48,980 nt of DNA from a phage, in sequence record NC_105619.1; one strand, 5' to 3'. The position numbers were made by a program, and so were the translations under genes. Of this stretch, positions 6,654 to 45,742 are shown piece by piece (within the stretch, counting starts at the first letter, position 1; the number at the start of each line of letters is the position of its first letter). The notes under the pieces were generated by a model. The model saw only the letters and a program-made list of their open reading frames with translations. It searched no databases and was not told where the DNA came from.

Positions 6654-6691
6654 CACAAAAACACTTTGACGCTTTAACAAAAAGTGCTATT
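6647..6691 (-). promoter_or_regulatory. reverse-oriented copy of the TAGCA-N5-TGTTA promoter module (antisense to late genes)
   Basis: On minus strand AATAGCACTTTTTGTTAA + 22 nt + TATGAC (preceded by TGt). Confidence 0.35.
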
Positions 6692-10409: not shown

Positions 10410-10454
10410 ATCGTATCAACTTTGCACTATTCTCTTTTAACAAAAAGTGCTATT
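10410..10454 (-). promoter_or_regulatory. reverse-oriented copy of promoter module (antisense to major tail protein gene)
   Basis: Minus strand AATAGCACTTTTTGTTAAAA + 22 nt + TACGAT (TGa-TACGAT). Confidence 0.35.
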
Positions 10455-15240: not shown

Positions 15241-15971
15241 TTAGTGCAAAAATTAAACTTGAAATTATGACTCACGCTCAAGAAGAATACCCACGCGAAT
15301 GCTGCGGGGTAGTCACCCAAAAGGGCCGAGTGCAAAAATACCATCGCGTTGATAATGTACATCGCGATCCTGATAATCACTTCATGATGGACGCAGTGCA
15401 ATACGCATGTATTGAGGACGACGCTGACTCAACCACGATCGCAATTGTCCACAGCCACACCGGGGACGGAGCTACAACTCTTCCCAGCGCTCACGATACG
15501 TGCATGTGTAATGAGATGGAAGTGACCTGGATTATTGTTAGCGTACCGGAAGGAGATATGCGATTTGTGAATCCAGAGAAATTACCTCTGATTGGTCGTC
15601 CGTGGTCATTAGGATCATTCGACTGTTACGGTCTTGTTATGGCGTGGCACAAAGAGCACGGCGTAGAGTTACGCGATCGCCGATTGAATTTTGAATGGTG
15701 GAAACCGGAGTACGGAATTAATCTCTATCAGGATTATTACAAGCAAGATGGATTCGTTGAGATTCCAGATCAGAATAACCCATCATTCGGGGATATGGTA
15801 ATCATGCAGATAGGGCAAAATGTTCCGGTATGGAACCACGCAGGCATTTACCTGGGTGATAATCAGATCTTACATCACGCCTTTGGCAAACTTTCGCGAC
15901 GTGATATCTATTCCGGCTGGTATCAGGATCATACTGTTTTAATTGTTCGCCATAAGGATCTTAAATTATGA
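15237..15971 (+). CDS. tail assembly protein (lambda gpK-like; JAMM/MPN + NlpC/P60 domains)
   Basis: JAMM motif E..HSHTGDGATTLPSAHD in N-terminal half; C-terminal half with Cys/His residues consistent with NlpC/P60; overlaps gpL stop. Confidence 0.7.
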   Translation: MISAKIKLEIMTHAQEEYPRECCGVVTQKGRVQKYHRVDNVHRDPDNHFMMDAVQYACIEDDADSTTIAIVHSHTGDGATTLPSAHDTCMCNEMEVTWIIVSVPEGDMRFVNPEKLPLIGRPWSLGSFDCYGLVMAWHKEHGVELRDRRLNFEWWKPEYGINLYQDYYKQDGFVEIPDQNNPSFGDMVIMQIGQNVPVWNHAGIYLGDNQILHHAFGKLSRRDIYSGWYQDHTVLIVRHKDLKL

Positions 15972-16567
15972 ATGATGTAAAAGTAATCAAATTATCAGGT
16001 TCACTTGGAAGGCGCTTCGGCGTCTTTCACAGATTCGCCGTTGACTCTTACCCGGAAGCTATCCGGGCGCTATCCAGTCAGGTGGATGGATTCAAAGAAT
16101 ACATGCAAAGCGAGATAGGATCTCGTAGCAAGTTTGCAATATTTGTGGATGGCGTTAACGTTGGACACCATGAAGAGGAAAAATTCAGGTGCGCGAAAGA
16201 GATAAGAATCGTACCGATCCCTACTGGCTCTAAGACAGGAGGTCTATTCCAGGTTGTATTGGGCGCGGCAATAATGGTTGCAGCATTCTATACTGGCGGC
16301 GCGTCTCTGGCTTTAATGGGCACAATGTCCTCGTCTCTGTTTATGATGGGCGGCGCTATGGTGCTGGGCGGCGTGATGCAGATGATTTCACCGCAGCCGG
16401 GTGGCGCAAACTTTGAAGTTCAATCAAGCAAGAATAAACCTTCGTACGCGTTCGGCGGTGCTGTCAATACGACGGCGGCGGGATACCCTCTCCCGGTCCC
16501 GTATGGATATCGCGCCGGAGGTGGCGCAACTTTCTCAGCAGGTTCTTATGCCGAGGATATGAGTTAA
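15968..16567 (+). CDS. tail assembly protein (lambda gpI-like)
   Basis: Position after K-like gene; Gly/Ala-rich hydrophobic C-terminal region. Confidence 0.6.
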   Translation: MNDVKVIKLSGSLGRRFGVFHRFAVDSYPEAIRALSSQVDGFKEYMQSEIGSRSKFAIFVDGVNVGHHEEEKFRCAKEIRIVPIPTGSKTGGLFQVVLGAAIMVAAFYTGGASLALMGTMSSSLFMMGGAMVLGGVMQMISPQPGGANFEVQSSKNKPSYAFGGAVNTTAAGYPLPVPYGYRAGGGATFSAGSYAEDMS

Positions 16568-29433: not shown

Positions 29434-29846
29434 TTACAGACAAAGGTGATTATTTAGAATTTTACGAGAGAGATCCAAGCGACACTCGAAAGGAGGACGC
29501 TCATCAGGTGGATTGTGTATCTTGGCTGAAATACAATTTTCCTCACCTTCTATTTTGGCACACTGTCAATGAAGGTGAAAAAACAATCACATCGGCGCTC
29601 AGGGATGAGCAGGCCGGATTACTTAAAGGCGTGTCAGACTTCGTTATCCTGATTGGTGTTAACTCACGATACCCGTTTGCAGCAATAGAACTAAAGCGGG
29701 TTAATAAGTCAGGCAAAGGAAAGGCGTCACCAGTCAGCGACAAGCAAAGGGAGTTTCTTCGAAAGGTCCGGGAGCGTGGCGGCTTCTCTGCCGTCGCATA
29801 CGGATTCGCGCAATTCAAGATCTCAATTCACGAAATGATGAAATAG
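29430..29846 (+). CDS. VRR-NUC domain nuclease
   Basis: ..DFVILIG..AAIELK..Q..F.. pattern (D-E-K nuclease core). Confidence 0.65.
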   Translation: MITDKGDYLEFYERDPSDTRKEDAHQVDCVSWLKYNFPHLLFWHTVNEGEKTITSALRDEQAGLLKGVSDFVILIGVNSRYPFAAIELKRVNKSGKGKASPVSDKQREFLRKVRERGGFSAVAYGFAQFKISIHEMMK

Positions 29847-29886
29847 CACTTTTTGTTAAAACTGCCGGAATGGAATCTGGCATTAT
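29842..29886 (+). promoter_or_regulatory. early promoter module upstream of dam
   Basis: AATAGCACTTTTTGTTAAAAC + 22 nt + CATTAT; box overlaps TAG stop of upstream gene. Confidence 0.5.
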
Positions 29887-36960: not shown

Positions 36961-37005
36961 ACTTTATCAAATGACCTTACGGCAATATTAACAAATCGTG
37001 CTATT
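36961..37005 (-). promoter_or_regulatory. early promoter module (minus strand)
   Basis: AATAGCACGATTTGTTAATA + 22 nt + TAAAGT; near-duplicate of module at 43568. Confidence 0.45.
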
Positions 37006-37220
37006 TACCAGGGAATATAATCGTCGTCGTCATTATCACCAATATCATCGCCGGGCATCTCGAAGTCGGGATTATATTCACTTTCTGCGTCCATATCCAT
37101 ATTCCCTAGTGCGTCGTCAAGCGTAATTTCTTTATATGCAACCTTGATACACCATTCCGCACTAAGCCCGGCATCTAGCGCGGCAAAATAACGAGTCCAG
37201 AAATTATCCTGTTACATTAA

Positions 37221-38595: not shown

Positions 38596-38640
38596 ACTAT
38601 ACCAGCCATCTAGGGCGTGCGTTTAACAAAAAGTGCTATT
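38596..38640 (-). promoter_or_regulatory. early promoter module (minus strand)
   Basis: AATAGCACTTTTTGTTAAAC + 22 nt + TATAGT; arms GATGG/CCATC flank -10. Confidence 0.5.
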
Positions 38641-38840: not shown

Positions 38841-39027
38841 TTAGAAGAAAGATACGTAATTTGCAACACCTTTAGCGTCGTCGTTAGGCATTGCCTTGAC
38901 AGCAAGATCATAACCAGCCTCGACCTTATGCTTTGCTGACTCTTCGTTGTGCCCCCCAAATAACCAGGATCTTAACTACGTTTTCTTTGTTCAGAACTTT
39001 AAGATCTTTAGTGATGCGACGTGCCAT
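38841..39027 (-). pseudogene. small gene interrupted by frame change at C6/G6 homopolymer (38952-38957)
   Basis: ATG with RBS GAGGAAAAAC; protein-like frame MARRITKDLKVLNKENVVKILVIWG.. continues in the other frame ..HNEESAKHKVEAGYDLAVKAMPNDDAKGVANYVSFF after the G6 run. Confidence 0.3.
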
Positions 39028-39060
39028 TTTGTTTTTCCTCAATCTCGTTTCGATGAGGTA

Positions 39061-39105
39061 ATTATGCCAAATCACACCGATCGAGTTTTAACAAAAAGTG
39101 CTATC
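39061..39105 (-). promoter_or_regulatory. early promoter module (minus strand)
   Basis: GATAGCACTTTTTGTTAAAAC + 22 nt + CATAAT; arms TCGAT/ATCGA flank -10. Confidence 0.5.
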
Positions 39106-39792
39106 CGCGATAGCTTTAAAAAATCCCCTGGGCGACAGAGATCGTATCAGCTTAGTTTTGGCAGACTTGCCGCCTAGCTTGCTGTGCTGTGCAGAGTACC
39201 CGTCAGGTAGGCTTACAGGTTTTCTCTCGGGCATGACAAAATCGTCAGAGGTCCAAAGGCAAGTTTTCTTCGGGTAAGCATCGCGCGGCGCAATATACAT
39301 CGGGAACCAGGGGTGTGAGTCATTCTCAGGAAGATAGCCGCCATACTCCCAGGGATTGAAAGTGTGATTTGGTTTTCTCCACACAGACGACAGGACGCTT
39401 ACCGGATTCTCAATGATGTAAGTCACGCCAAGGCTATCGCCAATGTTCGCGGCAATCCGGGCGGTGGCGGCAGCCTTCTCCTGGAATAACGGATCGCGTT
39501 CACGCTTTCTTGCGAAGTGAGCGGCACCACTAACAGCCAGGTCAGTGCACGACGGGAAGGCCATAATGAAATCCGGCTTGCCATACACGCCAGCGATAGC
39601 ATCACGCTCAAACGCTGCGTCAATGAACACGTTCACATACTCAATGTTCGGATGCTCCACTCGGGCATTGTACTTTGCATAATCCCCGTGATCGGCTCCG
39701 TCAAAGTTGAAGCACATCACCTTGTTACCTTGCTTAGCCAGTTCATGACCTGCAAGGCCGGAACCGTCGAATAGCGACCAGATTAATTTCAT
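39088..39792 (-). CDS. SAM-dependent DNA methyltransferase-like protein (C5-cytosine MTase-like motifs, compact)
   Basis: Motif-I-like SLFDGSGLAG, Cys-containing FPSCTD (cf. PCQ), ENP (cf. ENV); only 234 aa, no obvious target-recognition domain. Confidence 0.4.
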   Translation of the reverse strand: MKLIWSLFDGSGLAGHELAKQGNKVMCFNFDGADHGDYAKYNARVEHPNIEYVNVFIDAAFERDAIAGVYGKPDFIMAFPSCTDLAVSGAAHFARKRERDPLFQEKAAATARIAANIGDSLGVTYIIENPVSVLSSVWRKPNHTFNPWEYGGYLPENDSHPWFPMYIAPRDAYPKKTCLWTSDDFVMPERKPVSLPDGYSAQHSKLGGKSAKTKLIRSLSPRGFFKAIADSTFC

Positions 39793-40075: not shown

Positions 40076-40399
40076 ATTACACTTTAACTTGTCACGATTG
40101 TAATATTTGTCTAGAATCGCCATTGTGACAAAATTACGCACTGTGACACCTCACAATATACATATAGATATATGTATATATATAATATATATAGTGTTTT
40201 TTTTATTTATATATATAGATAATTATATTGTAATGGGTGTGTATAGTTGTCTTACATTGTCTAGCGTACTGTTGGCATATTTCTATCTGCATGTTTATAT
40301 ATACAGTACTTTTTTGAGGGTCGTATATTTCTATATGGACTCTAGACAGCTAGACAAATGTTACACGGCTTAAAATCGGCTTGCAGGCATTGACAACTC

Positions 40400-40445
40400 T
40401 ACGTCGCGCTGTAACAATGGCAATTGTTGACACGTTATGACGCCA
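40400..40445 (+). promoter_or_regulatory. tandem sigma70-like promoters with perfect TTGACA -35 boxes upstream of first rightward early gene
   Basis: cattTTGACAactctacgtcgcgctgTAACAAT and aattgTTGACAcgttatgacgcc.. Confidence 0.4.
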
Positions 40446-40476
40446 TTTACACGCAAATAGACAAAGAGGATATATT

Positions 40477-40992
40477 ATGAGCAATACCAATCAGGAATTA
40501 AAAATCACCGACATGATTCGCCTAACCTGCGATGCGATGTACCGCGACAAAGGCATGAGCGAGTTCTCTTTCGTGGCTGATGATATGGCCCTGGAAGGAG
40601 CGCGCTTCTACTTCCGCAACCAGGATGTAAGCGATAGCGATCTTGAGTCTGCCGCTGCCGGATGGGTGGACCAGAACCAGGGCGAGGTAGAGAAGAGATT
40701 CAAGTCTGCTTTCATCACTCCGATCATTACCAGGCACTTTTGCAAGTACGGAAAGGTTGCAAAGGTGAAAGTGGGCCGGAATGACGCCGCAATTACGATG
40801 ATAACCGTTATCGTTACAGACGAAGAGTTTCCGGTGAAGAAGCGCCGCAGCCGGAAGAAAGTTAGCCTGGCCGACTGCCTGGATTCGTTCACGCCTGATA
40901 TTGATGATCTCGAAAAAGGTGATGTGACTGTAAGCACAGTGCGCGACCTGGTTCGCCAGATGAAAGCGCATATTGAGAAATGCGGACTGTAA
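40477..40992 (+). CDS. hypothetical early protein
   Basis: 171-aa ORF, RBS AAAGAGGA, first gene after control region. Confidence 0.5.
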   Translation: MSNTNQELKITDMIRLTCDAMYRDKGMSEFSFVADDMALEGARFYFRNQDVSDSDLESAAAGWVDQNQGEVEKRFKSAFITPIITRHFCKYGKVAKVKVGRNDAAITMITVIVTDEEFPVKKRRSRKKVSLADCLDSFTPDIDDLEKGDVTVSTVRDLVRQMKAHIEKCGL

Positions 40993-41004: not shown

Positions 41005-41265
41005 ATGAGCAAGATTAAGCATGACGCCCTGAAAGGTATTTTGATGCGACTGGAGCCAGGCGAGGCATTCCAGCTTAACCCCGAAACGTTCGGATTCGAA
41101 GGTTTCTATCGGCAAGGGTTGCAGATGAGTTCTCCAGCCGATGAGTTTGTCCGATATGTGCGAAAGCAGTTCGGCGTCGAAATGATTAGCCTGGGCAAAG
41201 TGCAAGGCATCCAGCTATTCATTTTCAAGCCAAATAAGATTCGTTGCTTCACTCTGATGAAATAG
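41005..41265 (+). CDS. hypothetical protein
   Basis: RBS AAGGAGGG; start at second ATG. Confidence 0.45.
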   Translation: MSKIKHDALKGILMRLEPGEAFQLNPETFGFEGFYRQGLQMSSPADEFVRYVRKQFGVEMISLGKVQGIQLFIFKPNKIRCFTLMK

Positions 41266-41305
41266 CACTTTTTGTTAAAACCGGATCGGGGTATCTTGAT
41301 ATAGT
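41261..41305 (+). promoter_or_regulatory. early promoter module
   Basis: AATAGCACTTTTTGTTAAAAC + 22 nt + TATAGT (TGa extended); arms GGGGTA/TACCCC flank -10. Confidence 0.55.
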
Positions 41306-42096: not shown

Positions 42097-42288
42097 ATGG
42101 CTGATTTTATGCACCAAATGATTGCAGTATTCAAAGGTAGCGAAGATGAGGAAGTAAAAGAGTGCTTTACTGTCAACAAGTCTTATAGCGCTTCGCTAAC
42201 CAGCTTCGGTAACGTATCATTGCTTGATGATAATGGCGATCCCTGGGTATTCGATGAAGATACGGATTGCTTCGAAATTAAAGAATAG
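42097..42288 (+). CDS. hypothetical small acidic protein
   Basis: 63 aa, Asp/Glu-rich. Confidence 0.4.
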   Translation: MADFMHQMIAVFKGSEDEEVKECFTVNKSYSASLTSFGNVSLLDDNGDPWVFDEDTDCFEIKE

Positions 42289-42328
42289 CACTTTTTGTTA
42301 AAACGCGATCATGTGGTTGCGATATAGT
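42284..42328 (+). promoter_or_regulatory. early promoter module
   Basis: AATAGCACTTTTTGTTAAAAC + 22 nt + TATAGT; arms ATGTGGTT/AACCACAT flank -10. Confidence 0.55.
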
Positions 42329-42359: not shown

Positions 42360-42629
42360 ATGAAAATTAAATTACTTTGCACTGGCGGTTACAAAGGATT
42401 TACCCGCGACCTGGAATCGGACCCTATCGTGGTTGATGCAGTGAATCGCGATGATCGACTGGGCGGCTACCGCGTCAAGATCGAAGATCTGGTAAAAGCT
42501 GGTGTGTACGATCTGGATTATGGTTTGTCTGTCGGCCCGGTATTTGGTGCTGATATTAAAGCTGGCGATGAAACGATGTTCTTCTTCGATTGGGAAGTAC
42601 AGGCCAATCCTAAGCCGCGCAAGGTTTGA
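42360..42629 (+). CDS. hypothetical protein
   Basis: 89-aa ORF, RBS GAGGA. Confidence 0.45.
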   Translation: MKIKLLCTGGYKGFTRDLESDPIVVDAVNRDDRLGGYRVKIEDLVKAGVYDLDYGLSVGPVFGADIKAGDETMFFFDWEVQANPKPRKV

Positions 42630-42653
42630 CTACTCAACAATGGCGGCTACCAT

Positions 42654-42845
42654 ATGCGCCCAGGGTATGAGAATCGCACGTTCCCGGTTATCGTTGACTT
42701 TGAAAGAATTACTAGCAACCTGGCATACGTTAACGATGAGCAGTTGCGAGCCGTTGGATTTGTCAGCGGGATGAATAAAGAAGCACTATGCTTCGTTCGC
42801 GAGGAAATGCACGGTTACTATTCTGAGTGTGAGTTAGTTTACTAA
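42654..42845 (+). CDS. hypothetical protein
   Basis: 63-aa ORF. Confidence 0.35.
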   Translation: MRPGYENRTFPVIVDFERITSNLAYVNDEQLRAVGFVSGMNKEALCFVREEMHGYYSECELVY

Positions 42846-45265: not shown

Positions 45266-45355
45266 TCCCCTACACCAACAAACGAGGAATCACTAATGAA
45301 ACACTTAATTTGCATTGAAACGCCTAACGATGAATACACTCTTCACGGAATATGA

Positions 45356-45742
45356 ATGTTCAAAGGTCACTACATGACAGCAAGCATTCATGATTCGCGT
45401 CTATGCGATGGCGATCTGGTGATTACATCAAAAGAAGTAAATCCGTACATTATGCAGAATCTTGGCGATAACGAATATATGGCCTACGGCTGCAACGCGG
45501 TGTACAAGCATATCAAGATCCGCAAGCGTGTCGTGCGTGCATTCAAGAAGATTGCAATGAAATACTGGAAGATGAGCAAGAAGGACGCCGGACGCTGGGC
45601 GCGCAATGTTGCTGACTCGTACTTCTATCGTAACGGTGAGTCATGCTACTTCCTGATCGATGAAATTATGGAAAACTACGGCGGCGACTTCGGTCAGTGT
45701 AACTTTGACGATTGGGCTGACTATGAGATCAGTTGTTGGTGA
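45356..45742 (+). CDS. hypothetical protein
   Basis: 128-aa ORF preceded by 19-codon mini-ORF with RBS GAGGAA (ATGAATG junction). Confidence 0.45.
   Translation: MFKGHYMTASIHDSRLCDGDLVITSKEVNPYIMQNLGDNEYMAYGCNAVYKHIKIRKRVVRAFKKIAMKYWKMSKKDAGRWARNVADSYFYRNGESCYFLIDEIMENYGGDFGQCNFDDWADYEISCW

Follow-up and report, generated by a model that had tools for sequence, protein, structure and literature searches.

The window analysed here is the whole stretch of 48,980 nucleotides in sequence record NC_105619.1, the genome of Escherichia phage vB_EcoS_SA32RD, a T1-like coliphage (Drexlerviridae, Tunavirus). The phage was isolated on non-O157 STEC, from the faeces of South African dairy cattle (PMC6956337). 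At the nucleotide level the window is 90-95% identical to phages EF3-1, Sfin-3, SH2, IME18 and pSf-2. Exact-protein look-ups with two neighbouring genes and the 33-aa product discussed below found no other assembly of SA32RD. The locus under study is a small leftward gene with the following features:

39036..39040, minus strand: Shine-Dalgarno-like GAGGA, 8 nt 5' of the ATG and kept in the relatives in the alignment
39027-39025, minus strand: ATG start, which opens a frame of 33 codons
38926..39027, minus strand: truncated ORF of the deposited sequence, with 33 codons before the TAA (38928-38926), translated as MARRITKDLKVLNKENVVKILVIWGAQRRVSKA
38952..38957, minus strand: G6 run (C6 on the plus strand), which spans Trp24-Gly25 and is the site of the extra base
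38841..38951, minus strand: out-of-frame C-terminal remnant, 36 codons plus TAA (38843-38841), translated as HNEESAKHKVEAGYDLAVKAMPNDDAKGVANYVSFF

From the ATG, the 0-frame reads MARRITKDLKVLNKENVVKILVIWG, crosses TGG GGG G and goes on with AQRRVSKA to the TAA. The codons at the run are TGG for residue 24 (38958-56), GGG for residue 25 (38955-53) and GCA for residue 26, while the +1 frame starts with CAC at 38951 and runs through the remnant. When one G is deleted, a protein of 61 aa results, and a tblastn search with the IME18 orthologue returned two HSPs in two frames with their junction at the G6 run. An earlier note on this DNA, made from the letters alone, had described a leftward start with a good ribosome-binding site and a stop 33 codons in, a frame switch at the six-C run and a single 61-aa ORF once one base is removed. 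The minus-strand reading bears out the start and the stop, the HSP junction agrees with the position of the switch, and all coordinates and peptide strings of the note are correct. In the frame of the remnant, no ATG, GTG or TTG is found ahead of Met46, so meaningful translation of the remnant is not expected. The window has just four C/G runs with 6 bases or more, and longer A/T runs are common (seven A7, nine T7 and two T8). The public record of SA32RD annotates exactly the truncated 33-aa product as “hypothetical protein SA32RD_50” (P0039), and the extra G is therefore part of the deposited sequence.

The repaired 61-aa sequence matches the family DUF7421 (PF24196) with 137.2 bits, against a curated cut-off of 27 bits, and PHROG 7717 (phrog_7717) with an E-value of 1e-41, in both cases over residues 1-61 of 61. 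This end-to-end match, which also confirms the single 61-aa ORF proposed in the earlier note, means that the pair of open frames is not a chance arrangement. The deposited 33-aa product itself bears a precomputed PF24196 match; its residues 1-25 are authentic DUF7421 sequence and residues 26-33 are the out-of-frame AQRRVSKA. The gene order of Tunavirus is present in the window, with a cytosine methyltransferase gene followed by DUF7421 and then by a 61-aa PHROG 3623 gene. Instead of a single intact frame of about 61 codons, the window has a frame that breaks at codon 26 and ends after 33 codons. The window copy is therefore a disrupted allele (pseudogene) of the DUF7421 family and not a functional member.

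The family is strongly conserved, and the greater part of its near-invariant residues lie 3' of the break (E36, A37, G38, K44, A45, M46, P47, D49, D50, G53, A55, N56, Y57 and F61), and the lost C-terminal half carries the conserved pattern EAG...KAMPNDD..G.ANY..F. The AlphaFold model, which was made for the intact homologue P0001 and not for the repaired window sequence, is helical with a pLDDT of 80 and has helices at residues 7-10, 14-23, 28-45 and 51-60. On this model the break is predicted to fall in the loop 24-27, and the 33-aa product would be without the long C-terminal helices 28-45 and 51-60. Among PDB structures, Foldseek returned nothing significant (best E = 0.36, for weak three-helix look-alikes), and no publication on DUF7421 was found in a literature search. 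DUF7421 can be described as a predicted small helical accessory protein of T1-like and some T4-like coliphages. The gene is common to the siphovirus Tunavirus and to the T4-like Krischvirus (RB49, Phi1, JSE, GEC-3S and others), at about 75% amino acid and 73% nucleotide identity, which suggests a fairly recent horizontal exchange between unrelated coliphage families.

A further feature lies upstream of the gene:

39090..39114, minus strand: terminator-like hairpin and T-tract, between the cytosine methyltransferase gene (39792-39088) and the DUF7421 gene

This hairpin (39114-39090) holds one copy of the 17-nt motif TAGCACTTTTTGTTAAA, which forms its descending stem and T-tract. The motif has 14 sites in the window at no more than 3 mismatches, 7 of them exact, against 0.26 expected by chance; they include 6673-6689(-), 10436-10452(-), 29844-29860(+), 38622-38638(-), 39087-39103(-), 41263-41279(+) and 42286-42302(+). 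At the sites examined, it stands at or just past a gene end, and T1, pSf-2, IME18, EF3-1 and SA30RD contain 5-8 exact copies. The motif has the look of a terminator or regulatory box that is conserved among T1-like phages.

All five aligned relatives contain an intact 186-nt CDS of 61 aa at the same position, with a run of G4 or G5: the relatives read ATT TGG GGA TAC (G4) and ADB-2 reads TGG GGG TAC (G5), while the window reads ATT TGG GGG GCA C. The comparison of orthologues, which the earlier note had suggested as a check, thus gives one 61-aa gene that is split in the window by a single-base indel at the homopolymer. The protein is uninterrupted in 174 of 175 matching GenBank phage records, the frame is kept in all seven IMG/VR contigs that match a degenerate pattern spanning the site, and 37 of 40 protein clusters have members of 61-66 aa. 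A metagenome scan for the site found nothing.

Out-of-frame run lengths were seen in two sequences only, the window and the Logan contig SRR20950691_6083 (P0040; 34 aa). Like the window, this contig has a single-G indel in the same run, where it reads TGG GAT (G3), but the change is of opposite sign (G4 to G3, -1) and lies in a different T1-like background, a contig of 51.6 kb with other flanking genes. P0035, from another contig, is a truncated variant of 54 aa that leaves the family frame after Met46. The gene is absent altogether from T1 and from the sibling phage SA30RD, and it is therefore dispensable. From these comparisons, DUF7421 is an accessory gene that is occasionally lost or broken, and the Trp-Gly G-run is its natural indel hotspot.

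The sequence beyond the break gives some indication of its age. All residues of the remnant are found in intact homologues with the exception of His26: Asn27 is present in Sfin-3 and P0001, His33 in pSf-2, Val43 in IME18, ADB-2 and pSf-2, while several further homologues have Val54. The other nucleotide differences of the remnant from EF3-1 are synonymous, and even the TAA that ends the shifted frame stems from a natural CAT (His33) variant in common with pSf-2. Because the out-of-frame remnant shows no decay, a genuine lesion would be very recent, and the break is by this measure either recent or artefactual. Set against the nearest relatives, the change at the run is a complex one (GGGG-AT-ACA to GGGG-GGC-ACA), with two substitutions and one insertion within 3 nt, and the in-frame His26 intermediate was not found in any other sequence.

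Two explanations from the earlier note, a recent mutation and a sequencing error, are both plausible. According to the second, the phage in reality carries G5, its 61-aa gene is intact, and the homopolymer was miscalled in the deposited consensus; we regard this as a real but distinctly less probable explanation. The lesion lies exactly within a homopolymer, the allele is unique among 175 GenBank homologues, and the remnant is undecayed. The clustering of three changes within 3 nt can also arise from a locally poor base-call, and SA30RD, which comes from the same laboratory, likewise has one disrupted gene, the cytosine methylase. Against it stands the -1 indel that an independent k-mer assembly has in this run and that shows the site to be mutable; the remaining evidence comes from the genome as a whole.

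For the whole-genome indel comparison, blastn gap lists of the window versus pSf-2, T1, IME18 and EF3-1 were used. Indels that are not a multiple of 3 lie between genes or form compensated pairs in divergent stretches, and besides the G-run only three such indels are shared against all four relatives (25865, 26823 and 47183), all of them intergenic. The window has one more A in the A7 run of the tape-measure gene (13948) versus pSf-2 only, and it is probably pSf-2, where the annotated tape-measure gene is shorter (2808 nt vs 2874 nt), and not the window, that carries a homopolymer frameshift there.

Intactness was then screened with 163 annotated proteins of IME18 and pSf-2, with an explicit stop check since tblastn HSPs run through stops. 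Of these proteins, 139 are intact in the window and DUF7421 alone is frameshifted, the sole frameshift among about 150 conserved CDS. In a separate greedy-ORF frameshift screen, the matches were artefacts from upstream extensions of real genes. A terminal-branch test used the 11,762 codon columns that six genomes have in common. The private changes of the window are 258 synonymous, 48 nonsynonymous and 1 stop, which gives an N/S ratio of 0.19, within the span of 0.12-0.32 of the five relatives. Such a normal ratio indicates that the window sequence is not riddled with random errors. An assembly prone to homopolymer errors is marked by several homopolymer frameshifts and an excess of private nonsynonymous changes, neither of which was seen; the window contains dozens of longer A/T runs, yet no other conserved CDS is frameshifted.

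Three other small, conserved accessory genes are disrupted in SA32RD, each by a stop codon:

37005-37217, minus strand: homologue of pSf-2 gp81 (70 aa, 99% nt identity), with GAA to TAA at codon 2 (37212-37214)
42360-42845, plus strand: homologue of IME18 gp24 / pSf-2 gp60 (162 aa), with TGA at codon 90 (42627-42629)
45296-45742, plus strand: homologue of IME18 gp17 (148 aa, 88% aa identity), with GGA (Gly) to TGA at codon 20 (45353-45355)

The first of these reads ATG TAA, a start followed by a stop, where all relatives have ATG GAA, and in the second the relatives have CGA or CGT (Arg) at codon 90 where the window has TGA. In the third, an ATG stands directly after the stop (TGAATG), so that a restart product of 128 aa is conceivable. 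In total, four conserved loci are disrupted in the window, compared with 0-1 in T1, EF3-1, IME18, pSf-2 and SA30RD. These three lesions are substitutions to stop codons and not homopolymer indels. Because homopolymer miscalls cannot explain nonsense codons, and because the N/S ratio is normal, real loss-of-function changes are favoured, in early genes that the phage can do without.

A genuine mutation, a +1-base insertion in the Trp24-Gly25 G-run, is thus the most likely origin of the allele and in our view probably the correct one. The path may have started from an ancestor with TGG GGG (G5, as in ADB-2), to which replication slippage would have added one G to give G6. The ribosome would then read eight wrong residues and stop at codon 34, and the 33-aa product would keep the N-terminal helices only, with the conserved C-terminal half lost; such a null allele could be tolerated as the gene is dispensable. 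Taken at sequence level, the allele is a recent and non-programmed loss of function.

The cytosine methyltransferase gene next to DUF7421 also varies among these phages. In SA30RD (40155-40856) it has an in-frame stop, and the annotated CDS is 549 nt and described as “partially similar”; in IME18 (15856-16512) it is C-terminally shorter. The cytosine methyltransferase/DUF7421 module looks prone to decay.

The four null alleles might also have a common cause. The G6 frameshift could be one of four adaptive knock-outs in small early accessory genes, together with those at 37005-37217, 42360-42845 and 45296-45742, that were selected as the proteins trigger or are sensed by defences of the STEC host, with the G-run serving as a recurrent and reversible off-switch hotspot; we consider this very unlikely. 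A narrower proposal, in which the Trp-Gly G-run is a hypermutable contingency tract that toggles the gene in phage populations, perhaps as an escape from host defences by which the protein is sensed, appears very unlikely. It would fit with the presence of G3, G4, G5 and G6 at one site, with two independent out-of-frame alleles of opposite sign and with the knock-out of four accessory genes in SA32RD. However, the tract is short, is dictated by the conserved Trp-Gly and is not expanded, and 174 of 175 isolates are in frame. Contingency tracts are long and often vary in length among close relatives, and the known phase-variable poly-G tracts of phages have about 9 bases or more, whereas only 3-6 G are present here.

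In terms of significance, the main value of the ordinary insertion mutation or miscall described here lies in annotation: the SA32RD allele is an ordinary inactivated copy of a known domain-of-unknown-function gene, which the public record wrongly annotates as a CDS of 33 aa. The entry for SA32RD_50 ought to be marked as a DUF7421 pseudogene with a frameshift, or else the base call should be rechecked. The locus also adds some modest evidence from nature that Tunavirus phages can do without DUF7421, as the gene is absent from T1 and SA30RD and is broken independently in at least three sequences. Moreover, four null alleles in small early genes are an unusual load, and they could help in choosing accessory genes to be tested for their cost on given hosts.

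Programmed slippage, the third explanation in the earlier note, is not supported. By this account the G6 template would yield the full-length protein, either because tRNA-Gly slips on the ribosome (by +1 on GGG-G, or by -2) or because slippage occurs in transcription of the G-run, and we find it extremely improbable. The tRNA-Gly could re-pair perfectly one base on (GGG G to G GGG) and the conserved frame would then follow, which makes the mechanism possible and no more. The shift is not conserved, as the orthologues are single-frame with G4 or G5, and it is absent from the 174 in-frame GenBank homologues and from all the IMG/VR contigs. The A-site codon of the 0-frame is the common GCA, neither a stop nor a rare codon, and no RNA structure was detected (z = +0.73 against shuffled controls, of which 150 in 200 fold as well or better). 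The known cases of transcriptional slippage in bacteria need A/T runs of about 8-9 bases or more, and a G6 run is not known as a slippage tract in enterobacteria. Compared with the programmed +1 frameshifting of prfB, the window is alike in that a +1 shift is needed and re-pairing of the P-site tRNA is possible, but it is unlike prfB in that the A site has no stop or slow codon, no Shine-Dalgarno-like stimulator lies upstream at a prfB-like spacing, and the shift is not conserved. Conservation among orthologues and stimulatory elements, two marks of a programmed frameshift, are both missing from the G6 site.

The closest known system is the intact DUF7421 gene itself. Its members in Tunavirus are hypothetical proteins of 61 aa, for example EF3-1 gp45, Sfin-3 gp72, SH2 gp78, IME18 gp34 and pSf-2 gp72, and further members are found in the Krischvirus phages RB49, Phi1 and JSE. 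The window gene agrees with the Tunavirus genes in its position (3' of the cytosine methyltransferase gene and 5' of the PHROG 3623 gene), its ribosome-binding site and its start, and the repaired protein is 90-92% identical to the nearest intact DUF7421 proteins. It differs from them in the extra G in the Trp24-Gly25 run, which places residues 26-61 out of frame and leaves a product of 33 aa, and in His26, where intact homologues usually have Tyr, Phe or Asn.
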